From assembly GCA_030390025.1 (NCBI GenBank), contig CM059453.1:12586001-12650000 (forward strand): 64,000 bases of DNA. The letters run 5' to 3'. A model generated the notes under the pieces. It did not search any database. It was not told where the DNA came from and saw nothing but the letters and a program-made list of their open reading frames with translations. This stretch comes from Squalus acanthias. Its lineage: Eukaryota. Below, piece after piece: positions 1-35,547 of this stretch. Both the position numbers and the translations under genes were made by a program. Position 1 is the stretch's first letter; each line of letters starts with the position of its first letter.

Positions 1-390
1 GTGATAATTCGCAAAGTAAAGCTACATGCACATGTAAATTGGCCAAATTGCAATTTGCATCAGATCTACTTTAACTCTCAGAGTTGCCGGACATTCTACT
101 TCACAAACAAAGCGAATAATAATCGTCTTGGTTGATCATATAAAATGGAGAGAATCACAAAGGAAGCTTGTGTTGCACTTCACCCCATTGTCTTATCAAG
201 TGACGTCATTGGAATGGACAATCGTGAGAAGTGTTCGATTGGCTACGGAGGAAATGCATTTCACCCCCAAGAGCTTCACCATTGATTGGATGTACCAATT
301 GGAGGATGATTGCAATGAAAACCTAACAATTCGCATTGGAAAACATGTTTGTGTGGGATGCCTGAAGGTCTTTGTTCTATTTTGTTGCAG

Positions 391-426
391 GATTGGATGA
401 TACCACGAAAACTCCAGGTGGAGGAG
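391..426 (+). CDS. microexon 1, class C' (GLDDTTKTPGGG)
   Basis: gttgcag|36 nt|gttagc. Confidence 0.8.
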
Positions 427-3400
427 GTTAGCTCACTATGAACAGTGCTGGGGTTGTCACTCATTTGGGGCGTTACTGCTAAACAGAGAGGTATCACGTT
501 GGTACCAATTTTGCGTTGGTGTTTATATTCAACAGAAGTAAATGCAGGCAACCGAAACTATCGCCCCCATTTTGCGCTCAAGCACAAGACGAGGTTCCAT
601 GATAATTCCTCTGTAAGGGATGATTTAAAGTCTCTTTTGTGTTACAGCTAATTAAATAACGAGGGTCGTGATTGAAAATGGGCGAAGACACCACATTGGC
701 GCAATCTCTTTCGGAATCATTCATAGCATTTAGCTTGTTTTGAACACAATACCACCTATGTCCAATTTCACACCTAAAACTCTGAGCGGAAATCTGAACG
801 CCAGCAAATGACTAATATGACATAACTGGAAATGTCAGGTAGCTCTTTAGCAATGAAATGTTTGAAACGGTAATTTCTGTATTCCAGACCAAGGTGCAAC
901 CAAAGAAGCGTTGAAAGATTTAGGTAAAAAAATGTTTTCCGCCTGTAGAGTACTTTTGTATAGTTACAATTAACAACAGCCCAATCCTTTGCTTGACAAT
1001 AAGTAAAAGTATATAAGCTTCAAAGGCTGTGACACAAGTACGTCTTTGTTAGAATTCCCATGTTATACTTTATTACCTCCAGATTAGGCTATTCCAATGC
1101 TGTCCCGGCCAGATCCCGGCTTTGCAAATTCCGAAAACATCAGCTCACAGTAAAGTCTGCAGCCTGATTCCTAACTCAAAACTATTTCCATTCACCTATC
1201 ACCCCTACTTCGCTGACTTGCATTGGCCACCAGTCCGGCAACACTGCGATTTTAAAGTTTAAGTTCCTCCAAAGTCTGATGCTCTCCCTATCACTTTAAC
1301 GTCCAGTAGCCCTATAACAGTCAGAGATTTCTGTTCTCCTACAATTTCGTCCTCTTGTGTCTCCTCAAGAGTCATCGCTCCACCGTTGATCATGCCTTAA
1401 CCCACCTTGGCCATAAGCTCTGGTATTCCCTGCCTGAACGTCTCCGCCTCCACACAGCATCTCCTTTTAACGTATTCCTCAAAACACACCTCTTTGACCT
1501 GTCCTGATATCTCCTTATGTGCTCGGATTCACTCTTGGCTCAACAAAGCAATAGTTGGAAGGAGTTCAGCGAAGATTCACAAGTCTGATACCTGGGATGG
1601 CAGGAATGACATATGAGGAGAGATTGGGTCGATTGGGCTTATACTCGCAGGGGTATAGAAGAATGAGAGGCGATCTCATCGAAACGTATAAAATTATGAC
1701 AGGTCTGGACAAACTAGATGCAGGAAGAATGTTCCCGATGGTCGGAGAGTCCAGAACCAGGGGTCATAATCTAAGGATAAGGAGTAAGCCATTTAGGACA
1801 GAAATGAGGAAGAATTTCTTTACCCAGAGAGTGGTGAACCTGTGGAATTCTCTACCACAGAAGGTAGTTAAGGCCAAGTCATTAAATATATTCAAGAATG
1901 AGTTAGATATATTTCTTAAAGATGTGGGTATCAAGAGATATGGGGAGAAGGCAGGTACAGGGTACTGAGTTTGGATAATCAGCCATGATATCATCGAATG
2001 GTGGAGCAGGCTCGAGGGGGCGAATGGCCTACTCCTGCTCCTATCTTCTATGTTTCTATGTTAAGCGATTTCCGACATTTCAGTACTTTGAAATTGGCTA
2101 TATAAATGCACGTTGTTGCTGTAATATTGAAATGTTATTAAAATAGAACTGTTAATCAGTGAAGACGCCTAATTAATAATCGGGTACTTCAAAATAACAC
2201 TGCACTGTGCGGTGATAAAAGTTTAAATGTGTACAGTTAAATGAAGATTGGAATTCAACTTTTGAGGTATTTCCAAAAGGGCGGTATCGAATCGGCGCCC
2301 ATTTATAACCCCACCAGATATTCAGTTCCTTGAATTAGGACTGATCTAAACATCAAGCAGGGCGTATAACAGGCGGCCGGTACAATACCACTCATTTAGC
2401 GCTATCTTAAATGGGAAGATCTTTCGACACAGGACTTTATGTGCTAAAATTTTCAGGAGATAGAAAGTAAGCATGTGATCGGGTAACGTCCTGTGACGAA
2501 CAGAAATACTCAGCCAATCGCAACTTGCTTAGTTGAACTACATTCTTGGCAATAAACTTCCCTTTGCATTCTCAACTAAATTCCTCACTGATTACAGAAG
2601 AGAAACTGAAAGCAACAGAAGACGGTAAATGATTTTCAATTCAGTGTTTACAAATGCCTTATGACTGGAATTACTAAGAGAAGTCGCACAACACCAGGTT
2701 ATAGTCCAACAGCTTTATTTGAAATCACAAACTTTCGGAGCGCTGCTCCTTCGTCAGGTGGAGTGAAGAGATGCATATAGGCACAGCATATATAGTCAGA
2801 GAACACTGCCAGATGATTACAGTTAATCTTTCCAACTGCCCTTTATCACACCTCGGCAGAGAGATAATCACGGCAATCAAAGGTGTGGATGGTGTCCAAA
2901 CAGCTCAGTCAGGAAAATATTACATCAAAGACAATGTGGCAGATGCTGGGGTCTGTATGGAAAACAAAAAACTTTTTTTGCTGGAAGTCACAGCAGGTCC
3001 GGCCGCATCTGTGTCGAGAGAACAAGCCAACGACGACTCGAGTATGGATGACTCTACGTCAGGTGGGGTTACATGTAGCGGGACATGAACCCAAGATTCG
3101 ATTGAGGCCGCCCTCATGGGTGCAGAACTTGGCTATCAGTTTCTTCTCGACGATTTTGCGTTGTCGTGTGTCTCGAAGGCCGCCTTGGAGAACGCGTACC
3201 CGAAGATCGGAGGCTGAATGTCCTAAGAATGAATAAGAACATAGGAACAGGATTAGAAAATTGAAACAGAAAAATAAACGTTGCAAATTAAATTAAACAT
3301 GACCGTGGAGGCAATTTTCTGATGATATTGAGCTTCATGATAGTAATGATGATGGCAAAGGTGATGATGATGCTGCTGGTTATTCTCGAGCTAGTGAGGC

Positions 3401-6400
3401 TGCCGATTATGGTCATGGTGATGGGAATAATAAAGATGAGAATCATAATGACGGTGATCATGATGATTATACTGATGATTGTGGAGATCATGGGGATTAT
3501 GTTGATGATGTTGATGATGATTATAATTCCGACGATGGGGCTGATATTAATGATGTTGGTGATGGTGTTGATGCTGCTCACAATAATGTTGATGCTGAAG
3601 ATGGCGATTTTGATGGTGCTGATGATGTTGATGAAAGTGATAATTTTGCTGTTGATGACTGGATAGACGCAAAATGGGTGACCGCTTTGCGGAACACCTC
3701 CGTTCAGTCCGTAAGGGGGACCCCGAGCTCCCAGTCGCCTGTCACTTTAATTCCCCGCTCCACTCCCACTCTGACCAAAGCATCCTCGGCCTATTACACT
3801 GTTACACGGAAGCTTTGCGTAAGAACGAGGAACAGCACCTCAACTTTCGTTTAGGCACCCTACAGCCCTCTGGACTCAATATCGAGTTCAACAATTTTAG
3901 ATTATAAACTCAGCCCCCATCACATTTATATTTTATTTTTTAATCCACACTTCAGTTTGCCTTTTTCCCTTTTTTCCCCTCCCAGAAGATGGCATCTGTC
4001 CTTCATTCTGGCAGTGTATTTCAGACTTATTTTAGCCTCAACCTGTCACATTAACACCTCATCTTGCCTTGATCATCTCTTAATGTCTCTCAATGTCTCT
4101 TAATCTCTCCTTTTGTTCTTTCATCGCTTCCCCCTTTTCCCAGTTTTATACTTGCTTTAAATGTATTTCATGTCCTGCTTTTTTTCCAGTTCTGACGAAA
4201 GGTTTCTCTCTCCACGGATGCTGCCTGGCCTGCTGAGTTTTTCCAGCGTTTTCTGTTGTTATTTCGGATTTCCAGCATCCGCAGTATTATGCTATCGTGT
4301 TGAAAATCATGGTTCATGAGTTAGATATATTTCTTCGAGTTAGATATATTTCTTAAAGCTAAAGGTATCAAGGAATATGTGGAGAAGGCAGGTACAGGTC
4401 ACTGAGTTTGGATGATCAGCCATGATCTCATCGAATGGCGGAGCAGGCTCGAGGGTCGGAATGGCCTACTCCTGCTCCTATCTTCTATGTTTCTATGTTT
4501 CTATGTTTAGACAGTGGCGGAATGGTGGAGAACCAGAGAACACAGCTTTAAGGTTATTTGCAAAAGAACCAAATGCCATATGAAGAAAAAAAGCATTTGT
4601 TCACAGCGAGCTGTTGACATCTGGAATGCGCTGCCTGAAAGAGTGATGAAGGTAGACTCAATCATTGCTTTCAAAAGGGAATTGGATAATTACCTGAAGG
4701 AAAAAAAAGATGAAGGGAAACAGGGAAAGGGCGAGGGAGTTGGACTAGCTGAAGTGGTCTTGCAGAGAGCTGGCATGGGCTCGACGGGCCAAATGACCTC
4801 CATCTGTGCTGTTAATTTTCTAAGAACCTATTATTGTATGATCACATCAGCAGCCTCTTCTGTACACAGCCCTATTTCATCTTTTGAACGTCAATGTAAT
4901 GAACAATTAGAAAGGGTGTCTGCTAGACTAGAGATTGAATATATTTCAACCCAAAATATGCATTATTGACTGGATGTAACAACGGAAGGATAATCGCTTT
5001 TATAATGAAATAACGTGCTTCTACACTTGCCTTTAACATAATAAATTGCTCCAAGGCGCTTCTGAGGAACATTATCAAACACAATATGTGAAATAGACAC
5101 TTCAGGTGATATTAGAGGAGTGCAGAGATATCGACGTGATGAAGGGCTGTAGGAGGAAACAGAGATAAGGGCGGGTGACGCCAAGAAGGATTTATAAAAA
5201 AGGATGTTATTTTGAAAATTTCTCAGCTCCATATCTTGACATCTGTAGTTGGTGCAATTAAATCAGAAAATCCTCTTTTTATGGGTTGCCAAAAGAGCGT
5301 TGTCATTATTCTTCGCAGAACTGGAAGAGTACAAGAAAACTCAAGATGGACAAGGTTAGGACCTTATGTAGAGTGATGGGTTAGAAATTCGACTTGGCTG
5401 AAGGCGGGAAATGAGCAGTTATCACATTGGCAGATGTTGATGCTGAAGTCAATCAAAGTGAATATTGTGCGGGTCACATTACAGGAGACCCATCCGGTAA
5501 GGCCAGTTTTACATAAAACCCAACCTCTAATTCCTATACTGGTCCTTCTGAATATTAAAGAGGAGTTAAAGTTCTCTTTATATTAGAGTGGTATGAATAC
5601 CTAGGCTTGAAATTGGACAAGGGAGGCAAAATCATATCCGCAGAAGCTCCCTGTGCGCCCGTTGTAAGACACGCCCTATATTCAGTTCTTTGAAGTCATT
5701 GGAACTGAGAACGGCGAGTTGATTATAACGGGTGACTGATGCGATAGGGCCCGTTATGCGTGACCGGCCATTTTCAATTGCACACCTCAATCTATGACGG
5801 GCAATCTGATGATGAAGCTTCAGCAGGAACCAAATGGTTTATCGTGATTGTATGTTGCCTCCCTGTCAGTCAATATTCACATTTGGTAGCCTGGAGGTGG
5901 TGTAAGTTATTTCATTCTTAACACGTCATCTGCCCAATTGAAACTTACAAGTAATTCACAAAGTTTGGGAAATCTGTACAAACTTGGGGTTGTTGGGCTG
6001 AAATGTAACGAAAGTCTATTGAAATGGATGGGTTTAATGTTTATTGTTGTGTATTCCAGCACTCGCAGAATGTAAAGAATTAGTGAAGAATGCAGGTTAG
6101 AAACGGGATTTATATCCGGACAGACTATTGGAAAGTTATAGTACAAAACAGAATAAATTATTTACAGGACTCAGAAATAAGCAATCTTTCACTGAGCTAT
6201 TAAAATGTTAGCTTTTCCCTCTCATTTAACATAATCTCCTGTCTCTCAAATTCTAATGCTGCCGTTAAACATATTCACAAAATTTCCCTTTCAAAATCCC
6301 ACCATGTACTCGTTGACTTATATTGGCTCCGGATAGGGCGAAGCATTTGTCTTAAATTTGTCATCATTGGGGACATAAATATTCAGCGTCCTCTCAATCT

Positions 6401-9400
6401 CCATATCGATGTAACATTCGCTAACTGGACAAAAATCCGAGAGAGTTTGCATTCATCCAATCACATCCTCCAGTACATCGTGTGCAAGTCCTACTTTCTT
6501 CGCTCCATCATTGACTTCCGGGCCTTCCGCCGCTTTGTCCCTCAGCTCTGGGATACACTGCCTAAACCGACCGCCCCTTCTCCGCTCTCTCCTGCTTTAA
6601 GGCGCTGTTAAAATTGATTTCATTCATCAAGCTTTTGGTAACATGCCGTAATAAATGAAAACTGTGTAAATTGGAGAGAGGGGTACTAGGATCAAGGGAA
6701 CAGATAAACACATCTGTAAAAGTGGCGACACAATTTAATCCGGCCACAAAATAAATAAAACGAAGCACTAGGAAAAATGTCCAATGGAACAGAATAGAAA
6801 AACGAACAATTAATGTTATACTTGTGTAGTACCTTGGGCAGAGCGCTCTTGGAATACTACTGGTCTCAATATTATTAAAAAGGAATACATTTCCGAAAGG
6901 CTGTATTCTAAGCTTTACAATCTATGATTGACAATGAAGTGTCTTACAAAAAAAATAGCGAACACAAGTTGCTTTTTACGTTTGATATTCTTGGAACTAT
7001 TATTTCCAGTTTATTCACAAATTAAATGATTTGCTCCTTTACAGAAGATAAGTTGAAAGCCACAGAGGACGGTAAGTGATTTTCAAATTCAGTGTTAACA
7101 AAATGCATTATCACTGGTATTACTAAGAACAAAGGAACAGGAGTAGAACATTGAGCAACTCGGGCCTTTTCCGCCAGACCTATATTTAACAATGTTCCCC
7201 TAAAGGTGAAACAGAAAAAAAAATCTTGCAAACTCAAGTAAACGCGGCCGTGGTGGCATATTCTGATGATGGTGATGGTGATGATCGTAATGATGAAGGA
7301 AAAGGTGATAATGATGCTGACGGTTGTCCTGGGGTTGGTGATGCTGTCGATTGTGATCACGGTGGATCGAATGATAATGATGAGCGTCATAATGGCGATG
7401 ATCATGATGCCGGGATGAAAACGCTGATCATGGCTATCGTGGAGATCATGGGGATTAAATTGATGATGGTGATGATGTTTATCATTCTGACGGTGGGGCT
7501 GATAATAATGATGTTGTGGATGGTGTTGTTGGTGCTGTTGATCATAACGATGGTGATGCTGATGATGGATATGGTGATACTGCTGCTGATGTTCATGAAA
7601 GTAATTATGGTGCTGTTGATGACCAGATTGCCAAGAGAATCTCATGTTGTTCTACTTAGATCTGATAAGTTTGAGAGGAGAGTTTATAGAGGTGTTGAAA
7701 ATAATGATGGGTCTAGACAGAGTAGATAGAGAGGAATTCTACCAATTGGCTTAAGGGTCGAGACCCAGATGACACAGATATAATGGCCCTGAAATTCGCC
7801 TTTCCGGCTTCCTGCGGGTGCAAGCATCGCGTGCGTACTTGCCTACAGCGCCTGCAGTTGTGCTTTGAGCCCACGAGGACTTCGGGTCCTGGGCCTCCTC
7901 CAGCTGCCTGCGCGCAGTGCCTGTGTATCCCAGGGGCGCAGTTAGTTCGAAGCGTCCCCTGGGATCACGTGGGCCATGGAGAGCCAAACCTAGCAGGGCA
8001 TTTTCATTCATAGATTTTAAAGGAAGACCTGTCAAATCTATGAATAGAGATCGGCCCCAAAACCACAGTTAAACTTCAAATAAATTCAGAAAAAAACATC
8101 ACATTTTTAAAATAAGTATAAGTTAAATAAATTAACTACTTGAAACAAAAATTAAAATTTTCAAAAAATGTATTATACTTTTTAACGGTGCTAAAAATAA
8201 ACGAACCTTTCTTTAAAGTATCTAAAAAAGATAAACCCTTTGAAAATGTTTTTAAATATGAATTAATTAACCACTTACCTTGTTAAAAACAGGCCTTGCG
8301 CCTCCTTTTTAAAAGCGCAGCTTCTTCATACTTACCTTCCCGGAGAAACCTGAAAAAAAACCTAAGTTCACTGCGTGCACGCAGCCTCTCCCGCGCACCT
8401 GTTCGACTTCTGAACCTCTCCCTGCAGTGGAACGAAAGTTCCGGTATCCCGCGCATGCGCAGTGCATGCAGGAAACCGGCACTTAAGATGGCTTTACGGG
8501 TGAGCGCACAGCGAGTACTCACCTGACAACAGCCGAATTTCTGGGCCATTGTGATTGGCAAAAGAACCAAAGGCGACATGAAGAAATATATTATTTTCAC
8601 AGCGAGTGGATAGGATCTGGAATGCATTGTCTGAAAGGGTGGTGGAGTTAGATTCAATCGTGGCTTTCAATAGGGAATTGAATAATTACCTGAAAGAATA
8701 AAAATGAAGGGCAACAGGGATAGGGCGGAGGGTTGGGACAAGCTGAAGTGCTCTTGCAGAGAGCAGGCATGGGCTCGACGGGCCGAATGACCACCGACTG
8801 TGCTGTAAACAATCTATGATCCTATTATTATATGATCACATCAGAAGCATCTTCTGCTCTCAGCCCTATTTCATCTTTTGAATGTCAATGTAAATAACAA
8901 TTTGGAACGTTGTTTGCTGGACTACCGAGCGAATATGTTTCATCCCAAAATATTCATTAATGGCTGGTTGTACCAACTGAATATTAACCGCAAACAGAAT
9001 GAGGAACTTGCCTCTATAAAGTGCCTATAACATAATAAATTCCCCAGGAGCATTATTAAAAACAATGTGCCAAATAGACACTTCAAGTGATATTAGGATT
9101 GGTGCCCTATTGATGTGACGAAGTGATAGGGTTTAAGGAGCGACTTTAATTAGGAGAGAGAGGTAGAGAGGCAGATAGGTTTTGGGGAAAGAATACCAGA
9201 GATCAAGGCCTAGGCATCTGAAGGCACGGCCGCCAAAAGTCGGATCGATGAAAATTCGTGGATGTGTAAGAGACCAAAATTGGAGGAGTGCAGCGATCGC
9301 GACGTGTTGAAGGGCTGGAGGAGGTTGCACATATAGCGGCGATTGATGTCAAGAAGGATTTGTAAGAGCGGATGGTATTTTGAAAAAGACTCAGCTCCAC

Positions 9401-12400
9401 CTCTTAACATCTGCAGTTGGTGCATGGAAATCAGAATTCCGTTTTATATCGGTTGCCTAAAGAGATTTGTCATTATACATCGCAGAACTAGAAGAGTACA
9501 AGGAAACTCCAGATGGACAAGGTTAGAACAAAATGTAGAGCGGTGGGTTAGAAATCCGTCTGGTCAGGTAGCGGTAAACGAGCAGTTATCATATTGGGAT
9601 CCCAACATACCTTCATGCTGAAGTCAATCGTAGTGAATATCGTTCGGGTCATATAAAGGAGGCCGAGACGGTAAGGCCAATTTACCACTAAAGCACAACA
9701 TCTAATTCCTATAGTGGTCCTTCTCAATATTAAGGAGCAGTTAAAGTTAACTTTATATTAGATTGGCATGAATAACTAGGTGTGAAACTGGACAAGCGAG
9801 GTAATGGCATATTCGCTGAGACTCCCTTTGCGCCCGTTGTAAGACACGCACTCTATTCAGTTCTTTGAAGTCAATGCAACTGTGTACAGCGAGTTGCATA
9901 TAACGGGTGACTGATGCAATAGGGCCCGTTTTGCGTGCCCGGCCATTTCCAATTGCACACCTCAATCCCTGACGGGCAATCTGATGAAGGAGTTTCAGCA
10001 GAAACCAGCTGGTTTATCGGTACTGTATGTTGCTTCCCGGTGAAGCAATATTCGATGTAATAATCACTGTTCCTAAGAGAAAGCGACACAATACAATATT
10101 CAGAAGACGAGCAGTTGAATTCTACCCGGTGTCCACGATAATATTTATCCATGAAACAAGAACAGTAAAAAGCATCAGAAACCTTGTCATTTATTTCATT
10201 GTGGATTGCGGGAGCTGGCTATGTGCAAATTGACTGCCACATTTCCAGCATTTCAACTGTGACAACGCTTCCAATATGATTCACTGGCTGTGACCCGTCT
10301 TCGGACGCCTGGAAGTCATGAAAGACACGATAGAAATACACGTTATTTCACTTTTAACACGTCCTCTGCGCAATTGTAAGTGACAAGTTATTCACAAAGT
10401 TTTGGAGATCTGCACAAATGTGGGGGTGAAATGTAACGAATTTTGGATGGGATGTAATGTATATTGTTGTGTCTTCCAGTACTCGCTGCATGTAAAGAGT
10501 TATTGAAGAATACAGGTAAGGAATGGGATTTCTATCCGCACAGAACTTTGGAAAGTTATAGTGCATAAAAGAATAAGTTATTTACAGGACTCAAAATGAA
10601 GCAATCTTTCAGTGTGCAATAAAAGTGTTAGCTTTGCCTTCTTATTGTACATGAAAACCTGGCTCTAAAATTCAAATGCTGCCCTTAACCATATTCACAT
10701 AAGTTCCACTTAAAAATTTCACCATGTGCTCGTTGACCTGTATTGGCTCCGGATCGATTAAAATATTTGTCTTAAATATGTCATCCTTGGGGACAAAATA
10801 TTCAGTGTCCTCTGAATCAGCATATCGCTGAAACATTCGCTAACGGGACAAATATCCGAGATTTTGCTTTCATCCAATTCCATCCCCAATACCTCTTGTG
10901 CATACCCTATTTTCATCGCTCTACCATTGACATCTGCGCCCTCCGCCGCTTTGACCCTAAAATCTGGAATAAACTGCATAAACCAACCGCCCCTCCTCCT
11001 CTCTCTCTTCCATTAAGGCGTTCTTTAAATATTAACGCTTTGATCAACCTATTGTCCACAGGCCCTAATTAATGAAAACTGTAAATAGGAGAGAGGGGAA
11101 CTAGGATTCGAGGGTAAAAGAAAAATCCATTTGTAAAATTAGGGAACAACGTTACTCAGGCCACGAAATAAGCAAAAGAAAGAACTCGGACTAATTTCCG
11201 AAGCAACAGAACTAAAAAGCAGAGAATTAGTGTCATATTTGTATAGAACGTTCGGCAGAGCGCTCTTGGAATACTGTGCAACGTTATGGTCTCGATATTA
11301 TATAAAGCATATATAGTCCAAATGGAAACTAAAAACTGTTCCAGGGATGATACTTGAACTGAGAGTTGATAACTATTGTTAAAGACCGATAAGGCGCATG
11401 GGTGACCTTATATCAGTCTGTAAAAGTATGAACGGTTTTATACGGTAGATGTAACAAAATGATTCCACTTGTGGTGGAGACCAGAACCAGTAGAGGGAAA
11501 TGTAAAAAAATCACTTATAAATCTTGCAAGTAATTCTGGAGAAATTTCTCTACCAGAGCATGTTGAAATCGATGGAGTGGTTGGGGCGAATAAAATTGAT
11601 GTGTGTTTGTGAAAAATGACTTCACTCGAGTCTGTCTCAAAGCAGAAGATCACAGTTTATTTAACAGAGAGCTCTGGGAGAAGAGCCACAGACCCCGCGG
11701 TCTAGTGATCCACTTCTCTTCGTTACAGTGGTATCGAAACTTCTTTTATATATTATAGGGTCGGCTACGCAATTCATTACATACAAATGTCTTCACCCAA
11801 TCACATTCCCACAGCAACAAGCGCCTAATTCTAATCCGCCCTTTAAGCTATATTTTTACTTCCCTACCGAAACTATAAACATTGGGCCCCGCACTAACGC
11901 ATGTTGACCACAGACATTACTCATCGCACTGTGTCAGCCAAACCATTCTGTACTTACGAATTTACCTTAACTTTCACATTGCTGCTTTAATTTACATTCT
12001 TTAACTTTTACATTGTTGCTTTAAGCCCTATAATTTTTACCCTAACAATGTGTTTAAGGGGAAGCTAGATACACACGTGGGTCTGAAAGGAATAGATGAT
12101 TTTACGTTTAGTCTGAGACCAATTATGATTGGAGGAGGCGCGGATGGAGCATAAATATCGGCATGTTGGGCCGAAAGTCTGTTTTCTAAGCTTTACAGTC
12201 TATGATTGGCAATGAAGTGTTGCACAAAAAAAACCAGCGAAACACAAGTTGCGTTTTACGATTGACATTCTTGAAAATATTAATTCCTGTTCATTCACAA
12301 ATTAAATGATTTGCGTCTTTACAGAAGAGAAGTTGAAAGCAACAAAAGAAGGTAATTTGCCTCCCAAATTTCCTCAATAAAGGACAACTTGGCTTTCAAG

Positions 12401-12900
12401 CACTTTGGGATGTCCCGCGTTCGTGAACAATAGAAGGTGTCTCTTTATTAAAACGTATTTGATCTCCGTAGAAAGGTGGATAGTGTCCTTGGGTGTGAAG
12501 GTCAGGAATTTATACTGCTATGCAGGAGCTGAAACGTCTCATTTGCGCTATTGCAGAACTCGCAGCATGCAAAGAAACTTTAAAAGATGCTGGTAAGAGA
12601 ATGGAATTATTGTGTGTTAAAAAATCCCTTGCACAGTTATGCTGTAAACTNNNNNNNNNNNNNNNNNNNNNNNNNNNNNNNNNNNNNNNNNNNNNNNNNN
12701 NNNNNNNNNNNNNNNNNNNNNNNNNNNNNNNNNNNNNNNNNNNNNNNNNNNNNNNNNNNNNNNNNNNNNNNNNNNNNNNNNNNNNNNNNNNNNNNNNNNN
12801 NNNNNNNNNNNNNNNNNNNNNNNNNNNNNNNNNNNNNNNNNNNNNNNNNNNNNNNNNNNNNNNNNNNNNNNNNNNNNNNNGAAAGGATGAAAGATAGACA

Positions 12901-12934
<34 letters not shown>

Positions 12935-15900
12935 CTCGCATTTATCTAGCGCCTTTCGCGATCACAGGACGAACCAAGCCATTCTGAGCAATGATGATGG
13001 TCATCATGATGGTGATATTGATTGTGAAATTGATGATGATGGTGAGGGATTGCATGATCGTGATGTTGCTGGTGATAACAATGGTGATGTTTATGTTGAT
13101 GTTGTTGATGGTGATTTTGAAAATGCTGTTGGTGATGGTGATTGAGATAGCGATAAATGATGGTGACAGTGAAGGTTAAAATGAAGTTGATCATGGTGCT
13201 GATGATGCTGGTGCTGATGGAAATCTTTAAAAATGGTGACGAATTTGCTAATGGTGAGGATGTTGATAATAATGGTGATGGTGCTGTTGATGATGATGGT
13301 GATGGTGATGCTGCTGATGTTGGTAATGATGGTAATAACAATGAATGTGACAAATGTAACGGTTATTATTTTATTTTTCTTATATCCGTGATAATTCGCA
13401 AAGTAAAGCTACATGCACATGTAACTTGGCCAAATTGCAATTTGCAACAGATCACATTTTCTCTCAGAGATGCATTCTACTTCAGAAACATAGTGAATGA
13501 TAATTCTGTTGGTTGATCATATAAAATGGAGAGAATCACAAAGGAAGCTTGTGTATCACTTCACCCCATTGTCTTATCAAGTGACGTCATTGGAAAGGAC
13601 AATCATGAGAAGTGTTCGAATGGCTACCTGAGGAAATGCATTTCACCCCCAAGAGCTTCACCATTGACTGGATGTACCAATTGAAGAATGATTTGCAATG
13701 AAAACGTAACGATTTGCAGCTGAAACCCTGTTTGTGTGGGATGCCTGTAGGTCTCTGTTTTTTTTGTTGCAGGATTGGATGATACCACGAAAACTCCAGG
13801 TGAGGAGGTTAGCTCACGATGAACAGTGCTGGGTTTGTCACTCATTTGGGGCGCTACTGCTAAACAGAGAGGTATCACGTTGGTGCCAATTTTGCGTTGG
13901 TGTTTATATTCAACAGAACTAAATATCAGGCAGCGGAAACTATCGCCCCCATTTTGCGCTTAAGCACAAAACGAGGTTCCATGATAATTCCTCTGTAAGG
14001 GATGATTTAAAGTCTCTTTTGTATTACAGCAAATTAAATAACGAGGGTCGTGATTGGAAATGGGCGAAGACACCACATTGGCGCAATCTCTTTCGGAATC
14101 CTTCATAGTATTTAGGTTGAATTGAACACAATACCACCTATGTCCAATTTCACACCTAAAACTCTGAGCGGAAATCTGAACGCCAGCAAATGACTAATAT
14201 GACATAACTGGAAATGTCAGGTAGCTCTTTAGCAATGAAATGTTTGAAACGGTAATTTCTGTATTCCAGAACAAGGTGCAACCAAAGAAGCGTTGAAAGA
14301 TTTAGGTAACAAAATGTTTTCTGCCTGTAGAGTACTTTGGTACAGTTATAAGGTACAACAGCCCAATCCTTTGCTTGACAATAATTAAAAGTATATAAGG
14401 TTCAAAGGCTATGACACAAGTTTGTTTTCGTTAGAAATCCCATGTTATACTTTATTACCTCCAGATTAGGCTACTCCAATGCTGTCCCAGCCAGATCCTC
14501 GCTTTGCAAATTCCGAAAACATCAGCTCACAGTAAAGTCTGCAACTGCTTCCTAACTCACAGCTATTTCCATTCACCTATCACCCCTACTTCGCTGACTT
14601 GATTTGGCCACCAGTACGACAACACTGCGATTTTAAAGTTTAGGTCCCTCCAAAGCCTGATGCTCTCCCTATCACTGTAACCTCCAGTAGCCCGATAACA
14701 ATCAGAGATATCTGTGCTCCTTCAATTACGTCCTCTTGTGTCTCCTCAATATTCATCGCTCGACCGTTGACCATGCCTTCATCCGCCTTGGCCATAAGCT
14801 CTGGAATTCCCTGCCTGAACCTCTCCACCTCAACACAGCATCTCCTTTTAAAGTGTTCCTCAATCATAGAATCATGGAAGATAGGAGCAGATGTAGGCCA
14901 TTCGGCCCCTCTAGCCTGCTCCGCCATTCAATGCGATCATGGCTGATAATCCAAATTCAGTACCCTGCCCTGCTTTCTCCCCATATCCCTTGATCCCTTT
15001 AGACTTAAGAAATATATCCAACTCCTTCTTAAATCTATTTATTGAATTGGCCTCTACTGCCTTCTGTGGCATAGAATACCATAGGTTCACCACTCTCTGG
15101 GTGAAGAAATTCCTCCTATTTTCTGTCCTAAATGGCTTACCCCTTATCGTTAGAATGTGACCCCTGGTTCTGGACTCCACGAACATCGGGAACATCCTTC
15201 ATGCATCTAGTTTGTCCTGTCCTGTCAGAATTTTATAAGTTTCAATGTGATCCCCTCTCATTCTTCTAAACTCCAGCGAGTATAAGCCCAGTCGACCCAA
15301 TCTCTCTTCATACGTCATTCCTGCCATCCCAGGTATCAGCCTTGTGAATCTTCGCTGAACTGCTTCCATGGCAAGAACATCCTTCCTCAGATAAGGCGAC
15401 CAAAACTGCACACAGTACTCAAGGTGTGGTCTCACCAAGGCCCTGTGCAAAACACACCTCTTTGACCTGTCCTGATATCTCCTTATGTTCTCGGATTCAC
15501 TCTTTGCTCAACATCGTAACAGTTAAGAGATTTGCGATATTTCTGTACTTTGAAATTGGCTATATAAATGCACGTTGTTGCTGTAATATTGGAATGTTAT
15601 TAAGATAGAACTGTTAATCAGTGAAGACGCATAATTAATAATTGGTTACTTGATAATAACACAGCACTGTGCGATAATAAGCGAGTGAACTTATACAGAA
15701 AAATGAATATTGGAATTCGCCTTTTGAGGTATTTCCAAAAGGGCGGTATCGAATCGGCGCCCATTTATACCCCCACCAGTTATTCAGTTCCTTGAATTTG
15801 GACTTATCTAACCATCAAGCGGGGCGTATAACAGGCGGCCGGTACAATACCACCCATTTAGCGCTCTCTTAAACAGGAAGATCTTTCGACACAGGACTTT

Positions 15901-18900
15901 ATGTGCTAAAAGTTTCAGGAGATTTAAAGTAAGCATATCATTGGGCAACGTCCTGTGTCGTACAGAAAAACTCAGCCAATCGTAACTTGCCTAGTTCAAC
16001 GACATTCTTGGCAATAAACTTTCCTTTGCCTTCTCAACTAAATTCCTTACTAATTACAGAAGAGAAGCTGAAAGCAACAGAAGACGGTAAATGATTTTCT
16101 AATTCAGTGTTTACAAATGCCTTATAACTGGAATTAATAACAACATAGGAACAGGATTCGAAAATTGAAACAGAAAAATAAATGTTGCAAATTAAATGAA
16201 ACATGACCGTGGTGGCATTTTTCTGATGATGTTGAGGTTCATGATAGTGATGATGATGGCAAAGGTGATGATGAAGGTGACGGTTATTCTCGAGCTAGTG
16301 AGGCTGCCGATTATGGTCATGGTGATGGGAATAATAATGATGAGAATCATAATAATGATGATCATGATGATTGTACTGATGATTGTGGAGATCATGGGGA
16401 TTATGTTGATGATGGTGATGATGATTATAATTCCGACGATGGGGCTGATATTAATGATGTTGGTGATGGTGTTGATGGTGATCACAATAACGTTGATGCT
16501 GATGATGGCGATTTTGATGGTGCTGATGATGTTGATGAAATTGATAATTTTGCTGTTGATGACTGGATAGACTAGAGAAGCTTTGGGAGCTCTCTTTAGA
16601 GCTGAAAATTCTGAACGCAGATTTAATAGAGGTGTTGAAAATCATGATGTTTCTAGACAGTGGCGGGATGGAGGAGAACCAGAGAACACAGCTTTAACGA
16701 TAGCAAAATAATGCGGATGCTGGAAATCCGAAATAACAACAGAAAACGCTTAAAAACTCAGCATGCCAGGCAGCATCCGTGGAGAGAGAAACAGAGTTAA
16801 CGTTTCAGGTCGAAGACCTTTCGTCAGAACTGGAAAAAAGCAGTAAATGAAATAGATTTCAAGCAAGTATAATACTGGGAAAAGGGGGAGGGGATGAAAG
16901 AACAATAGGCAAGGTCAGTGGTGGGATAGATAGCAGGAGAGATTAAGAGACACAAAGAGATAATCAAGGCAAGAGGGGTGTTAATGTGACAGGTAGAGGC
17001 AAGCTGAAGTGTGAACTGGGCTGGCAGAATGAAGGACAGCTGCCAGCTTCTGCGAGGGGAAAAAAAGGCCAAACAAAAGGGTGGATGAAAAAACAAAATA
17101 AAAATATATATATATGTGATATGGGCCAAGGTTATGACCTGAAATTGTTGAACTCGATGTTGAGTCCAGAAGGCTGTAGGGTGCCTAAACGAAAGATGAG
17201 GTGCTATTCCTCGAGCTTGCGCTGATCTTCCGTGGAACAATGCAAGAGGCCGAGGACGATGTGGTCAGAGAGGGAGTGGAGTGGAGAATTAAAGTGACAG
17301 GCCACCGGGAGCTCGGGGTCCCCCTTACGGACTGAACGGAGGTGTTCCACAAACACAGCTTTAAGGTTATTTGCAAAAGCACCAAATGCGACATGAAGAA
17401 AAAAAGCTTTTGTTCACAGCGAGTTGTTGACATCTGGAATGCAGTGCCTGAAAGAGTGGTGAAGGTAGACCCAATCACTGCTATCAAAAGGGAATTGGAT
17501 AATTACATAAAGGAAAAAAAGATGAAGGGAAACAGGGAAAGGGCGAGGGAGTGGGACTTGCTGAAGTGGTCTTGCAGAGAGCTGGCATGGGTTCCACGGG
17601 CCAAATGACCTCCATCTGTGCTGTTAATTTTCTATGGTCCTATTATTGTATGATCACATCAGCAGCCTCTTCTGTACACAGACCTATTTCATCCTTTAAA
17701 CGTCGAAGTAAAGAATAAATAGGACACATGTTTGATAGACTAGAGATTGAATATATTTCAACCGAAAATATTCATTATTGATTGAATGTAACAACGCAAG
17801 GATGAATGCCAAATTAATCGTTAATTTAATGTCTTAAATTAACAGCCTCTCTACTTGCCTTTAACAAAATAAAATGCTCCAAGGCGCTTGACAGGTGTAT
17901 TTCCAAACAAAATGCTTCAAATAGACATTTCAGGTAATATTAGAGAAGTGTAGAGATATGGACGTGATGAAGGGCTGTAGGAGGAAACAGAGATAGGGGC
18001 GAGTGACGTCAAGAAGGATTTGTAATAAAGGATGATATTTTGAAAAATTCTCAGCTATACATCTTGACATCTGTAGTTGGGGCTTTTAAATCAGAATGCC
18101 TCTTTGTATGGGTTGCCTAAAGAGCTTTGTCATTATTCTTCGCAGAACTGGAAGAGTACAAGAAAACTCCAGATGGACAAGGTTCGGACACAATGTAGAG
18201 TGATGGGGTAGAAAATCGTCTTGTCAGGTAGCGATAAAAGAGCAGTTATCACATTGGGATCCCAACATACATTGAGGCAGAAGTCACTCGAAGTGAATAT
18301 CGTGCGGGTCATATTACAGGAGGACTATACGGTAAGGCCAATTTTACACTAAAGCACAACATCTAATTCCAATACTGGTCCATCTGAATATTAAACAGGA
18401 GATAAAGTTATCTTTATATTACAGTGGTATGAATACCTAGGCGTGAAATTGGACAAGGGAGGTAAAAGGATACCCGCAGAATCTCCCTGTGCGATCTTTG
18501 GAAAACACGCCCTATATTCAGTTCTTTGAAGTCATTGGAACTGATGACGGCGAGTTGATTATAACGGGTGACTGATGCGATAGGGCCCGTTATGCGTGGC
18601 CGGCCAGTTCCAATTGCACACCTCAATCACTGACTGGCAATCTGATGCAGGAGTTTCACCAGGAACCAAATGGTTTATCGTGATTGTATGTTGCCTCCCT
18701 GTCAGTCAATATTCGCATTTGGTAGCCTGGAGGTGGTGAAAGGCACGATAGAAGTGTAAGTTATTTCATTCTTAAAACATCCTCTGCCCAATTGAAACTG
18801 ACAATTCCTTCACAAAGTTTGGGAAATCTGTACAAACTTGGGGGTGTTGGGCTGAAATGTAACGAAAGTCTATTGAAATGGATGGGATTTAACGTTTATT

Positions 18901-21900
18901 GTTGTGTATTCCAGCACTCGCAGAATGTAAAGAATTAGTGAAGAATGCAGGTTAGAAACGGGATTTATATCCGGACAGACTATTGGAAAGTTACAGTACA
19001 TAACAGAATAAATTATTTACAGGACTCAGAAATCAGCAATCTTTCACTGAGCTATTAAAATGTTAGCTTTTCCTTCTCATTCAACATGATCTCCTGTCTC
19101 TAAAATTCTAATGCTGCCCTTAATCATATTCACACAATTTCCCATGCAAAATTTCGCCACGTGCTCGTTGACCTGTATTGCCTCTGGATCGGGCAAAGCA
19201 GTTACCTTAAATTTGTCATCTTTGGGGACATTTTCAGTGTCCTCTCAATCTCCATATCGCTGTAACATTCGCTCACTGGATAAATGTCTGAGGTTTTGCA
19301 TTCAACCAATTACATCCTGCAATACTGCGTGTGCATGTCCTGTTCTCTTCGCTCCATCATTGACATCCGGGCCTTCCGCCGCTTTGTCCCGAAGCTCTGG
19401 GACACACTGCATAAACCAACCGCCCCTCCTCCTTTCTCTAATTCTTTAAGGCGTTCTTTAAAATGTATTTCGTTGATCAAGCTTTTGTTACCATGCCCAA
19501 ATAAATGAATTGAATCTGGCCACGAATACAGCAAACGAAGCACTCGGACTAATTTCCAAAGGAACAGAATACAAAATAAACAAAGAATTAGTGTCATATT
19601 TGTGCAGAACATTGGGAAGAGCGCTCTTGGAATAACGTACACATTTATGTTCTCAATATTATTAAAAAGGAATAAAGTCCCGAAAGGCTGTATTCTGAGC
19701 TTTACAGTCTATGATTGACAATGAAGTGTCGTACAAAAGAAATAGCGAAACACAAGTTGCTTTTTACGTTTGTCTTTCTTGGAATTATTAATTCCTGTTT
19801 ATACACAAAATTGAATGATTTGCTCCTTTACAGAAGATAAGTTGAAAGCAACAGAGGACGGTAAGTGAATTTCAAATTCAGTGTTAACAAATGCATTATA
19901 ACTGGAATTACAAAGAACATTCTGACGGTTACCCTGGTGCTGGTGATGTTGACGACTTTGATCATTGTGAATGGAATGATAATGATGAGCATCATAATGA
20001 CGATGATTACGATGCCAATGATGAAGATGGTGATGATGGCTATCGTGGAGATGATGGGGATTATATTGATGATGGTGATGATGATTATAATTCTGACGAT
20101 GTGGCAGATAATAATGATGGTGTGGATGATGCTGGTGATCCTAATGATGGCGATGCTGATGATCGCGATTGTGATAGTGCTGATGATGTTGATGAAAGTG
20201 ATAGATAGCCAAGAGAAGCTGGGGTTGCTCTCCTTGGAGCAGAGAAGTTTGCGAGGAGAATTAATAGAGGTGCTGAAAATCATGATGGGTCCAGACAGAG
20301 CAGATAGAGAAAAACTGTTCCCTTTGGCTTAAGGGTCGGGAGCTAGAGGACACATATATAATGTGATTGACAGAAGAACCAACAGCGACATGAAGAAATA
20401 CTTTCTTTCCACAGCGACTGTTTAGGATCTGGAATGCACTGCTTGAAAGGGCGGTGGAATCAGACTCAATCGTGGCTTTCAACAGGGAATTGATTAATTA
20501 CCTGAAAGATTAAAAAATGAAGTGCAACAGGGATAGAGCGGGGGCGTGGGACAAGCTGAAGTGCTCTTGCAGAATGCAGGCATGGGCTTGACCGACTGAA
20601 TGACCTTCTGTGCGATAAATATTATATGAACCTATTATTATATGATCTCATCGGAAGCACTCAGCCCTATTCCATCTTTTGAACCTCAACATTAAGAAAA
20701 ATTAGGAACATTGTTTGCTGGGCTACCGAGTGAATATGTTCCGTCCCAAAATATTCATTAATGACTGGATGTACATTAATCACAAACATAATGAAAAAAC
20801 TTGGCTCTATATAGCGCGTATAAAATAATAAAATACCCAAAGGCGCTTCACAGGAGCATTATCAAACACAATGTGCCAAATAGACACTTCAAGTGATATT
20901 AGGATAGGTGCCCTATTGGTAAGATGCAGTGATAGTGTGTAAGGATTAAGTTAAATTAGGAGAGAGAGGTAGAGAGGCGGATAAGTGTTGGGGAAGGAAT
21001 ACCGGGGATCAAGGCCTAGGCATCTGAAGGCACGGCCGCAAAAAGCTGGATCAATAAAAATTCGTGGATGTGTAAGAGACCAAAATTGGAGGAGTGCAGA
21101 GATCTCGACGTGTTGAACATGCTGGAAGAGGTTAGAAAGATAGGGGCAAGAGACACAAAGAAGGATTTCTAAAAAAGGATCATATTTTAAAAATTCACAG
21201 CTTCACATCATGGCAACTGTAGTTGGTGCTTTGAAATGAGAATCCCTCTGTGTGTGTTGCCTAAAGAGCTTTGTCATTATTCATTGTAGAACTGGAAGAA
21301 TACAAGAAAACTCCAGATGGACAAGGTTAGGTCACAATGTAGATCGGTGGGGTAGAACTTCGTCTTGGCTGGTGGCGGTAAACGAGCAGTTATCACATTG
21401 GGATCCCAATATACGTTGATGCTGAATTCAATGGAAGTGAATATCGTGCGGATCACATTACAGGAGGCCTCTCCGTTAAGGCCAGTTTTACACTAAAGCC
21501 CAACATCTAATTCCAATACTGGTCCATCACAATATTAAACAGGAGTTAAAGTTCTCTTTATATTACAGTGGTATGAATACCTAGGCATGAAATTGGACAT
21601 GGGAGGTAATGGCATATTCGCAGATATTACCTTTGCGCCCGTTGTAAGACAAGCCCTATATTCAGTTCTTTAAAGTCAATGGAACTGATAACGGCCAGTT
21701 GCATATAACGGGTGACTGATGCAATAGGGCCCTTTATGCGCGCCCGGACATTTCCAATTGCACACCTGAATCACTGACAGGCAATCTGATGAAGGAATTT
21801 CAGCAGAAATCAGCTGGTTTATCGGGGCTGTATGTTGCTCCCGGTGAAGCAATATTCGATGGAATAATCACTGTTCCCAAGAGAAAGCGACACAATACAA

Positions 21901-30900: not shown

Positions 30901-33900
30901 GTTTGCTGGGATACCGAGTGACTATGTTTCATCCTAAAATATTCATTAATGACTGGATGTACCAAGTGAACATTAATGGCAGACATAATGAAAAAACTTG
31001 CCTCCATATATCGCCTATAATATAATAAACTGCCCAAAGTCGCATCACAGGAGCATTTTCAAACACAATGTGCCAAACAGACACTTCAAGTTATAATGGG
31101 ATTGGTGCTCAATCGCTAAGACAAATTGATAGGGTTTAATGAGCGAATTAAAGTAGGAGAGAGAGTTAGCGATGCGGATAGGTTTTGGGGAAGGAATGCC
31201 AGAGATCAAGACCTGGGCATCTGAAGGCTCGGCTGCCAAAATTTGGATCGATGAAAATTCGGGGATGGGTATGCGGCCAAAATTGGAGGAGTGCAGAGAT
31301 TTCGACGTGTTGAATGTCTGGAGAAGTTGACGGAGATAGGGGCGAGTGTCGCCACGAAGGATTTGTAAAAAAGTTTGATATTTTGAAAATTTCTCAGCTC
31401 CGCATTTTGGCATCTGTAGTTGGTGCATTGAAATCAGAATCTCTCTTTGTATGGTGGCCTAAAAGGCTTTGTTATTATTCATCGTAGAACTGGAAGAATA
31501 CAAGAAAACTCCAGACGGACAAGGTTCGGACACAATGTAGAGCGGTGGGGTAGAAATTTGTCTTGGCTGGTAGCGGTAAATGAGCAGTTATCACATTGTA
31601 ATCCCAACATACTTTAATGCTGAAGTCAATCGTAGTGAATATCGTGCGGGTCACATTACAGGAGGCCTATACCGTAAGGCCAGTTTTACACTAAAGCCCA
31701 ACATCTAATTCCAATACTGGTCCTTTTCAATATTAAGGAGGAGATAATGTTACCTTTGTATTAGAATTGTATGAATACCTAGGCGTGAAATTGGACAAGG
31801 GAGGTAATAGCATATTCGCAAAGACTCGCTTTGCGCCCGATCTAATACACACCGCATATTCAGGTTTTTGAAATCAATGGAACTCAGTACCGCGAGTTGC
31901 ATATAAAGGTGACTGACGCAATAGGGCCGGTTATGCGTGCCCTGTCAATTCCAATTGCACACCTCAAACCCTGACGGGCAATCAGACGAAGAGGTTTCAG
32001 CATCAACCAGCTGGTTTACCGTTAATGTTTGTTGCTTCCCTGTGAAGCAATATTGGCTGGAATAATCACTGTTCCCAAAAGAAAGTGACAGAATACAATA
32101 TTTAGAAGCTGATCAGCTGAATTCTACCTGGTGTCCCGGGACATTATTTATCTCTCAAACAACAACACTAAAAAACAGCAGATTATCCAGTCATTTACTT
32201 CATTTCGTTTTGTGGGAGATAGCTGTCCGCAAATTGGCTGCCACATTTCCAACATTACAACTGTGACTACGCCTCCATTATAATTCATTGGCTGTGACTC
32301 GTCTTCGGAAGCCTAGAGGTCCTGAAAGGCACGATAGAAATACAAGCTATTTCTTACCACGTCCTTCGCGCAATTGAAACTGGCAAGTTATTCGCAAAGT
32401 TTTGGAAATCTGTACAAACTTGGGGGAGAAATGTAACGAAATTCTATTGAGATGGATGGGATGCAATGTTTATTGTTGTGTATTCCAGTACTCGCTGCAT
32501 GTAAAGAATTATTGAAGAATACAGGTAAGAAATGGTATTTCTACCGGGACAGAAGATTGGAAAGTTATAGGATATAATCGAATAAATTCTTTACAATAAT
32601 CAGAATGATGCAATCTTTCAGTGTGCTATTAAAAATGTTAGCTTTCCCTACTTATTTTGAATTAAAATCTGTCTCTAAAATTCTAATGCTGCCCTTAACC
32701 ATATTTACACAATTTCCCTTTCAAAATTCCACCATGTGCTCATTGACCTGTATTGGCTCCGGATCGGTCAACACATTTGTCTTAAATTTGTCATCCTTGG
32801 GGTCAAAATATTCAGTGTCCTCTTAATCTCCATTTCGCTGTAACATTCGCTAAGTAGATAAATATCCAAGATTATGCATTCAGCCAAATCCATTTTCCAA
32901 TACCTCTTGTGCACGCCCTATTTCCATCGCTCTACCATTGACATTTGTGCCTTGCGCCGCTTTGAACCTAAGCTCTGGAATACACTGCCTAAACCAAGCG
33001 CCCCTCCTCCTCTCTTTCTTCCATTAAGGCGCTCTTTAAACATTAACGCTTTGATCAAGCTTAAGTCTGCAAGGCCTAATAAATGAAAACTGTGTAAATA
33101 GGAGAGAGGAAAACTATCATCGAGTGGAACAGATAAACTCATCTGTGAAAGTAGGGACCCAAGTTAATCAGGCCACGAAAAAAGCAAACGAAGGACTCAG
33201 GACTTATTTCCAAAGGAACAGAACTGATAAGCTGAGAGTTATTGTCATATTTGTGTAGAACTTTGGGCAGAGCGCTCTTGGTATACTGTGCAAAGTTATG
33301 GTCTCAATATTATAAAAATGATATAGAGTCCCAATGGAAACTGTAAAAAGTCGTTACAAGGATGATACTTGAACTGAGAGTATAAACTATTGATAAAGAC
33401 CGATAAGGTGGCTGATCTTTATCTCGAAATCTGAAGTCGCAGGGGTGATCTGATAGAAATCTTTAAAACTTCGAACAGTTTAATACGGTAGATGTAGCGA
33501 AATGATTCCATTTGTGGTGGAGAGCAGAACTAAATGCGGGAAATGTAAGATAATTACTAATAAACCCTGCAAGTAATTTTGGTGAAAGTTCTCTAACAGT
33601 GCATGTTGAAATCGATGGAGTAGTTGGGCAAATAGCATTGCTGTGTTTAAGGGGAAGCTAGATAAACACGTGGGCCTGAAGGGAATAGAGGATTATACGG
33701 TTCGTCTGAGACCAAATATGATTGGAGAAGGCGCGTGTGGAGCATAAATATCGGCATGTTGGGCCAAAAGGCTGTTTTCTAAGCTTTACAGTCTATGATT
33801 GGCAATGAAGTGTTACACAAAAAAAAAGCGAAGCACAAGTTGCTTTTTACGATTGACATTCTTGGAAATATGAATTCCTGTTCATTCACAAATGAAATGA

Positions 33901-35547
33901 TTTGCTTCTTTACAGAAGATAAGTTGAAAGCAACAGAAGAAGGTAATTGATTTTGCATTTATTGTTGATAAATGAATCTCAACTATATATGGTTCCTTTC
34001 CCCCATACATGAAATTCCGTATTTTTCCAAAATCCATTTGATCCACATTAGGGAAGGAATGTTGGATATGTTATTCAGACTTTCACGAGCAGTGACTCAG
34101 TTGGTTTGATCTCTCGCTGTGAGTCATCACGTGGTGGGTTCAATGACCACTAAAGTGACTGGGATACTAATTCTAGTCTGGCACTCCAGTGAAAGTATTG
34201 ATCGAGTGCTTCAATGTCGGAGGCATCGCCTGCTGGACGATATTCCGATCGCAGGCCTCACGCGGGCGGTGGCCTGCGATCTGGAAAAATCTGCGCCCTT
34301 ATCTGAGGGCTCCCAGAAGGCGCACAGTTTCGATGCTGGGCCTCTCCAAGCTGCCTGTGTGCAGGGCCCAGGTAGTTCGCAGCGTCCCTGGGATCACGTG
34401 GGCCATGGGGAGCCAATCAAAGAATGGAATCTCCCTTCATACATTTGACAGGAAGGCCTGTCAAATATATGAATGGAGATCACCCCCAAAACATTGTAAT
34501 ATTTATTAAATTTTAAAAAAAATCACATTTTTAAAATGACTTAAAAGTACAATAAATTAACTAATTTTTTCAAAAACATAATTAAAGTTTTTTACGGGGC
34601 TAAAAATAAACTTCCTTTTTTAAAGAATATTTTTTTAAACTTTTTTCAACTCTTATCCTGGTAAAAGCAGGCCTTACGCCTGCTTTTACCAGGCGCAAGA
34701 ATTGTAAGAGTTTGCTGCGGGCGGAGGGTCTCCAAAAAGCGGAAATCTCCGCCCGCAGAGGTCCTTCGCCCGGGCAGCCGAAGGATCTGTCATGAGCTTT
34801 CTTGACAGATCGGAAATGCCGGTTTCCAGCGCATGGGCAGTGCATGCCTGAAATCGGCCTTTCCGATGTCTCTGCCGGTGGGTACACAGCGCGTACCCAC
34901 CCGTAGGGATCGGAATATCCGGCCCAATCAACGGAAGCTCTCTCCGCCCTATCAAGTGGATGTCATGGCATTATTTCGAAGAGTAGGCGGTGAGTTGTCG
35001 CCGGGATACTGTCGAATATTTATCCCTCAACCAACGTCAGGAAATAAACAGATGGTCTGGTAATTATCTCCTTGCTATCTGTGCGGCATTGCTGTGCGTT
35101 TTTGCCTCCCAACTTTCCTAAATATAGTACAACGTAGTTATCAAGCAAATTGGGATGTTCTGCCGTCGTGATCAATAGAACGTGTACCTTTATTAAGACG
35201 TTTTTGAAATCTGTAGAAAGGTTGAAAGGTTGGGTGTTCATAAAGGTCATGAATTTCTATGAAAACGTTGGAGCTGAAACGTTTCATTTGCGGTATTGCA
35301 GATCTCGCTGCTTGCAAAGAAACTTTAAAAGATGCCGGTGAGAGAATGGAAATATTCTATTTTTTAAATGTTCTTGCACCGTTATGTTTTAAACTGAATT
35401 AGAATAAAGCAAAGAATGCAAGAAAGAAAGATTGCAAGAAAGCAAGAAAGAAAGAAAACAGAAAGAAAGAAAGCAAGAAAGCAAGAAAGAAGGAAAGCAA
35501 GAATGAAAGAATGAAAGAAAGAAAGACAGGAAGAGAGAAAGAAAGAT

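Follow-up and report, generated by a model that had tools for sequence, protein, structure and literature searches.

The guinea pig enterophilins are long cytosolic heptad rods of ~30 heptads with a B30.2 domain and are not known to carry RING or Ig domains. Butyrophilins (BTN/BTNL) have a region of only a few heptads followed by a C-terminal B30.2 domain, and TRIM proteins with B30.2 (TRIM58, TRIM39-like, and A33-like) carry it after a coiled coil. Chicken BG genes and a soluble zipper protein encode a long heptad tail in many tiny split-codon exons, and in BG the heptads span exon junctions, cysteines occur in the cytoplasmic coil, and copy number varies (PMC4046983, PMC5938342, and PMC8813856). 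The BG genes have 21-nt one-heptad exons (13–36 per gene in one haplotype), an IgV domain, and a membrane anchor and lack B30.2. The heptad tails of both BTN and BG are described as cytoplasmic, those of BG carrying cytoplasmic cysteines (PMC5938342, PMC8813856), for which palmitoylation was suggested (PMC5938342). The Squalus acanthias locus analyzed here differs from BG by a unit of paired 36- and 27-nt exons, by ~800 exons, and by a B30.2 domain, with no IgV or anchor in the stretch searched. A literature search, with most subscription papers outside it, found no description of such a gene.

The window, a stretch of 64,000 nt (G000:C30:12,586,001–12,650,000 of a 3.7-Gb genome), lies entirely inside an array of micro-exons that extends past both window ends. 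Contig positions equal 12,586,000 plus the window coordinate, also for the extended coordinates outside 1–64000. The array occupies the + strand of C30 from 11,369,850 to 13,376,458 (extended −1,216,150 to 790,458), at least 2.0 Mb, with its 5′ end further upstream. The curated list comprises 795 exons encoding about 8,176 aa, of which 418 measure 27 nt, 357 measure 36 nt, and the other 20 range from 15 to 30 nt. Stop-containing and weak matches were dropped, three 35-nt copies were omitted, and a fourth was entered as 27 nt; manual additions were the last 27-nt exon and 23 exons picked up by a length-free scan, 24 in all. Over the 2.0-Mb locus, the nucleotide profile matched 746 times on the + strand and 8 times on the − strand, and it found nothing in the 50.6 kb beyond the terminal exon. 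Exon lengths in the length-free scan peaked at 27 and 36 nt, on the + strand only, and the 21-nt size of BG exons was found in 4 of the 795. Gaps of 22–24 kb occur within the array, and a strict 36/27 alternation over 77 exons starts outside the window at C30:12,794,408.

The last 27-nt exon (extended 790,432, + strand) is followed by a terminal B30.2/PRY-SPRY exon at C30:13,378,008–13,378,528 (extended 792,008–792,528, + strand), which opens in phase 1. This exon matched Pfam SPRY (E 3e-15) and, over its full length, solved B30.2 domains, best TRIM58 (E 5e-20) and also BTN3A1 (E 2e-16); Pfam PRY alone did not match it. By this domain, the predicted product belongs to the B30.2/PRY-SPRY domain proteins. 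An early lead, a lectin neck of the CD23/CD209 type, was abandoned after the B30.2 end turned up. Searches with tblastn or motifs detected no second B30.2, Ig (IgV), RING, or B-box in 2.06 Mb, a stretch outside which the gene's 5′ end lies. Elsewhere in the genome, BTN IgV and IgC queries gave 107 matches (150 of 159 candidates scored) and 79 matches (150 of 175 scored), respectively, none of them on C30, and the N-terminus of the chimaera model found no match in the genome. Linkage to the MHC was not indicated either, as none of 50 class I matches fell on C30 and the search for class II beta was empty genome-wide. A very large cluster of B30.2, BTN-type IgV/IgC, and class I-like exons resides on contig C26, not on C30.

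In a tree of 38 hand-chosen B30.2 rows with midpoint root, the array and cartilaginous-fish B30.2 domains formed one clade of 9 rows (support 100/99) apart from the 29 BTN and TRIM rows. This clade includes Callorhinchus XP_042192744 and XP_007898089, Leucoraja XP_055510696, Narcine XP_069775385, and Scyliorhinus XP_038668997. The cartilaginous-fish models, collected by a cluster-representative search and a profile search, are 129–1,722 aa long and have automatic names only. Five clade models scanned with Pfam had SPRY without RING, B-box, or Ig. The chimaera model has the array's 12+9-aa modules with Cys5 and belongs to the same B30.2 clade; 18 of its 24 cysteines have Leu, Ile, Val, or Met at +4 (background 22%). 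Module-profile matches above the 95th shuffle percentile numbered 11 in P0047 and 6 in P0169, and the Leucoraja skate model resembles the last exons of the array. The models of these relatives are far shorter than the array, probably because annotation missed the tiny exons.

The array differs from butyrophilins in the length of the rod, and no BTN IgV/IgC match was found on C30; for the RING and B-box of TRIM proteins, no match was found in the 2.06 Mb or in the five scanned clade models. Its charge pattern suits a parallel coil, and the coil of TRIM proteins is described as antiparallel (PMC6599887). The likeness to enterophilins is one of architecture, a rod plus B30.2, with ~30 heptads there versus up to ~1,100 here; enterophilin is mentioned together with SNX1/EGFR in PMC13749957. 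The array has a heptad micro-exon plus B30.2 architecture, and we do not assign it to BTN, BG, or TRIM.

Within the window, 62 exon copies lie at 391–63538 (+ strand). They follow a unit of 10 exons and 111 aa (C′ D B C A B C A B A′) that recurs about six times, once in a shortened form. The profile matched 61 times on the + strand and never on the − strand, compared with 0–2 matches per shuffled window (4 in 20 shuffles). An earlier sequence-only reading had singled out three exons on the + strand, and their positions and lengths were borne out: all three have AG/GT ends and phase 1-1. The A exon at 10480–10515 (36 nt) has Leu at a2 and a9, Cys at d5, and Thr at d12, and both of its alternative frames contain a stop. 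The B exon at 12325–12351 (27 nt) completes the 21-aa module with Leu a16 and Thr d19, and the A′ exon at 12557–12592 (36 nt) carries the register on through a23, Cys d26, a30, and Ala d33. When they are joined as A-B-A′, Leu falls at 2, 9, 16, 23, and 30, while positions 5, 12, 19, 26, and 33 hold C, T, T, C, and A, precisely the pattern claimed. The peptide quoted for it has this pattern but comes from exons 28–30 (32489–32524, 33916–33942, and 35302–35337, + strand), not from exons 8–10 at the above coordinates, which differ in a few non-core residues. The remaining types are exemplified by the C hinge exon at 9486–9521 (+ strand, 36 nt, 12 copies in the window), in which Leu and Tyr in register lead into a Pro/Gly turn, and by the D exon at 14270–14305 (+ strand, 36 nt, 7 copies), which is A-like without Cys. 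Cys5 was also correctly called invariant in A/A′ exons, being present in 18 of 18 in the window and absent from the 7 D-type exons. ATG/GAT-rich and GAAA simple repeats recur in the introns of the array (window 7260–7630, 12990–13340, and similar sites), often before C′ exons, and were apparently duplicated along with the 10-exon unit.

The reading frame is fixed by the terminal B30.2 exon, which opens in phase 1. Of the 746 profile matches, 1 contains a stop when read in phase 1, compared with 536 when read in phase 0 and 326 in phase 2; for the 61 window exons, the respective counts are 0, 42, and 28. Training the profile on stop-free phase-1 exons favored phase 1 by construction, but it has no bearing on stops in the other two frames or on the phase in which the B30.2 exon opens. 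The frame had previously been argued from the continuous register, and these two lines are stronger evidence for the same choice.

The heptad register is continuous at 462 of 794 junctions, compared with 268 ± 12 in 500 shuffles of exon order; the register score was devised after the pattern had been seen and, together with the profile training, makes both controls lean towards the result. Continuity depends on the type of junction, with 219 of 261 for 36>27, as the sequence-only reading anticipated, 170 of 263 for 27>36, 59 of 148 for 27>27, and 1 of 82 for 36>36. In the window, 36 of 60 junctions are in register, 23 shift by 5, and one, at a damaged copy, shifts by 2. Across junctions, the lag-7 hydrophobic correlation was 0.38 against 0.14 for the whole array and 0.37 against 0.12 for the window alone, reached by none of 300 shuffles in each case. 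These register and lag-7 results identify the 21-aa pair (36+27 nt, three heptads) as the building block, each pair of which would add three heptads in register. Pairs preserve frame and register at once, which makes tandem duplication of such pairs the likely way in which the array expanded. The heptad is maintained by the summed length of the pair, not by that of each exon, a difference from chicken BG with its one-heptad exons.

Every 36–36 break in the window borders a Pro/Gly hinge exon or a damaged copy, leaving segments of 27–33 aa, and the Pro/Gly exons are likely hinges at these register breaks. The proposal of a segmented rod holds for the window, with segments of ~4–5 heptads between hinges, and fails as the general form. 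Lag-21 periodicity in the window was not above shuffle (288 of 300), as a hinged block would predict, while a hinge-free run of 1,432 aa starts at 208,408 and the 208–425 kb block has a period of 3.500. Other blocks of the array have units of 12, 30, 33, or 39 aa, so that the hinged form is local. A block made of 36-nt exons only has no lag-7 signal. At extended −1,030,102 to −952,870, ~20 consecutive 36-nt exons without a 27-nt partner, nearly all with Cys5, form a 12-aa repeat lacking heptad continuity. Ten 15-nt exons are found at extended 429,664–589,527, most of them between two 36-nt exons, giving 17-aa steps.

The sequence-only reading spoke of leucine-zipper rods, but the core does not resemble a leucine zipper in the bZIP sense because Leu occupies a rather than d, where small or polar residues are found. 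Among 261 modules, Leu is present at a2 in 78%, a9 in 82%, and a16 in 88%. Position d5 holds Cys (45%) or Leu (41%), and Ala, Leu, or Thr are found at d12; at d19, Lys (33%) and Cys (31%) are more frequent than Thr (14%) and Arg (10%). Polar residues account for about 7% at a and about 35% at d, compared with 35% at a and 5% at d in bZIP and 5% at a and 45% at d in the stalks of trimeric autotransporters (PMC13580157). Charge pairs between g and e′ are largely attractive at 1–6 (166 attractive, 13 repulsive) and 15–20 (138 and 17), and mostly repulsive at g8–e13 (14 and 37); on balance, the pattern fits a predicted parallel homo-oligomer. A 110-aa piece of the chimaera model, used as a stand-in for the array unit, was predicted as a single helix with pLDDT 95 as a monomer, and the ESM Atlas returned generic coiled-coil matches only, all under 0.9.

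For the number of strands, the core gives mixed indications. Lys or Arg at d19 in 43% of modules favors a dimer, given that dimers accommodate long polar side chains in the core better than trimers do (PMC13580157), and the polar bias at d together with a trimer-like motif favors a trimer. We lean slightly towards a two-stranded rod, and three strands would be possible, though less expected. A trimer could place three d-cysteines together as a periodic Cys3 site binding Zn or other soft metals or sensing redox. Cysteines at a or d bind metals in designed three-stranded coiled coils, and K15-L16-x-x-C/T19-E20 resembles the RhxxhE trimer motif, in addition to the stalk-like bias at d. Such a Cys3 rod nevertheless seems quite improbable, with Lys/Arg at d19 hard to bury in trimers (PMC13580157) and the heptad tails of BG described as two-chain coils (PMC5938342). 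Against the parallel two-stranded rod, in turn, stand the same polar bias and the repulsive g8–e13 pairs.

The cysteines of the modules are at d in 214 of 219 cases, with one Cys in 190 modules, two in 12, and none in 59, and ~30 more lie in a separate 27-nt hinge-type exon. Their site differs by block: it is d19 between −670 and −45 kb, d5 in the following stretch up to 520 kb, and d12 in part of 520–690 kb. They keep to a single position, predicted to be buried, and are likely intracellular packing residues rather than cross-links. The exchange of Cys and Leu at d5 and the 59 modules without d-Cys argue for a packing residue; in this reading, Cys at d would be small, reduced, and replaceable in the core by Leu, Ala, or Thr. 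Plain packing is a poor explanation for the persistence of roughly one Cys in each module as its place shifts between d5, d12, and d19.

Alternatively, the rod could be a parallel dimer stitched by disulfides, secreted or oxidized in a terminally differentiating cell, in which paired d-cysteines would form one inter-chain disulfide per ~3 nm and offset a weak Thr/Lys core. The ectodomain of PLVAP has a comparable parallel coil with Cys, Thr, and Lys/Arg in the core, but PLVAP is an unrelated, extracellular type II membrane protein without B30.2 (PMC10083539) and serves as a model for this possibility only. In favor of it, besides the single Cys at d in most modules, distinct modules combine Cys5 with a polar Lys, Arg, or Thr at d19 (80) or Cys19 with Leu5 (62), and only 9 have both cysteines; this covariation tracks block ancestry, so the counts are not independent. 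The chimaera model begins with a short hydrophobic stretch, but its hydropathy is 1.6, within the 1.5–1.6 of the N-termini of relatives, compared with 3.1–3.3 in true BTN anchors. The rod itself, with a hydropathy maximum of 0.46 over the 795-exon part, contains no transmembrane segment. N-glycosylation sequons occur at chance (13 versus 15.9 ± 3.6), a weak test. The closest B30.2 relatives are cytoplasmic domains, and the B30.2 end, which the sequence-only reading had missed when it raised inter-chain disulfides, argues for a cytosolic protein and lowers this idea, which we consider unlikely.

The single strand and phase, the one B30.2 exon, and the lack of Ig, RING, or B-box motifs in 2.06 Mb argue for a rod encoded by one gene. 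We therefore consider the array to be likely one gene for an extremely long hinged rod ending in B30.2, presumably read as a single transcript. RNA from three runs, covering window positions 1–20000 and the B30.2 region, yielded mostly repeat-derived contigs and no exon joint among the joints listed, and weighs neither way. An internal promoter at the strongest CpG island (about −561,000) was rejected because its inverted ends resemble a MITE.

Alternatively, the array might consist of several tandem genes, or form a pool from which each mRNA takes a subset of exons, some blocks being recent and partly dead duplicates and the real proteins far shorter. All exons are symmetric, so that any subset stays in frame, and the 22–24 kb gaps could conceal gene ends. 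All database relatives are as short as noted above, and the two annotations of the chimaera gene, both of them gene models, disagree at 18 places, of which 8 amount to an exact piece of 9 or 12 aa. Damaged copies exist as well. In the window, two of the seven C′ copies are not intact 36-nt exons as assembled, namely those at 13773–13807 and 36689–36723 (+ strand, both 35 nt), of which the latter was entered in the curated list as a 27-nt exon through a cryptic donor. The former is either an assembly error or a skipped copy. Including 99874 and −187790, four copies in the array are each one G short in a G run, and these, along with one junction of the curated list that creates a stop, speak against an intact single gene. 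On the other hand, one G missing from a G run is a typical long-read error, and the uniformity of the four copies suggests a systematic assembly error over decay. The donors are GT in 791 of 795 curated exons, and besides the single terminal domain exon, no convincing other exon type was found in 2.06 Mb. For distinct copies in the stretch from −45 to 425 kb, pN/pS without correction, from pairs that are not independent, was 0.48 for A, 0.46 for B, and 0.53 for C compared with 0.99 for the C′ linker; these ratios favor the rod and speak for purifying selection in the recent blocks. Shorter products seem rather unlikely to us.

Taken together, the exons of the window would be modules of a multi-megabase array, likely one gene, encoding a cytosolic parallel coiled-coil rod, most likely two-stranded, that ends in a B30.2 recognition domain. 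Such a rod could act as a very long spacer or tether keeping the B30.2 domains away from a partner of the N-terminus. We hold the chances to be about even that the rod is cytosolic and parallel, spaces or tethers B30.2 domains, and uses Cys in its core as a small residue in the reduced state. A bolder version would be a single gene of >800 exons and >2 Mb for a hinged tether of micrometre length (up to about 1.2 µm) tipped with B30.2, in which one core Cys in every three heptads, kept by selection and evolved anew at three d positions, would form a ladder that locks the stiffness of the rod under redox or metal control; this is speculative and appears fairly improbable. The single Cys that moves block by block among the d positions offers a simple and testable clue to the function of the rod. 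Titin has 363 exons, and the array, if one gene, has more than twice as many and is nearly invisible to annotation, represented only by short misnamed fragments. What is new at this locus of Squalus acanthias is the size (at least 2.0 Mb and 795 exons), the junction-by-junction test of the register, and the moving d-position Cys.

The array has a collinear twin, arranged head-to-head on the − strand at G000:C30:9.90–10.92 Mb, with a B30.2 exon 84% identical at 9,899,685 and matching micro-exon blocks at 10.45–10.47 and 10.71–10.92 Mb. The 5′ end of the array is placed between 10.92 and 11.37 Mb, the region in which the twin must also begin. On the + strand of C30, at 8.38 Mb and 9.57–9.85 Mb, five more B30.2 exons of the array type (42–49% identity), with single matches to the micro-exon pattern, are probably further, shorter family members. 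On another contig, at G000:C1:102,237,175–102,258,085, an exon-pair unit of the −100 kb block recurs in at least eight tandem copies (70–77% identity), either as a displaced piece or as a separate small gene. Past the terminal B30.2 exon, at extended 806,729–807,652 and 818,883–819,824, two intronless ORFs of ~310 aa contain hydrophobic segments and look GPCR-like by eye.
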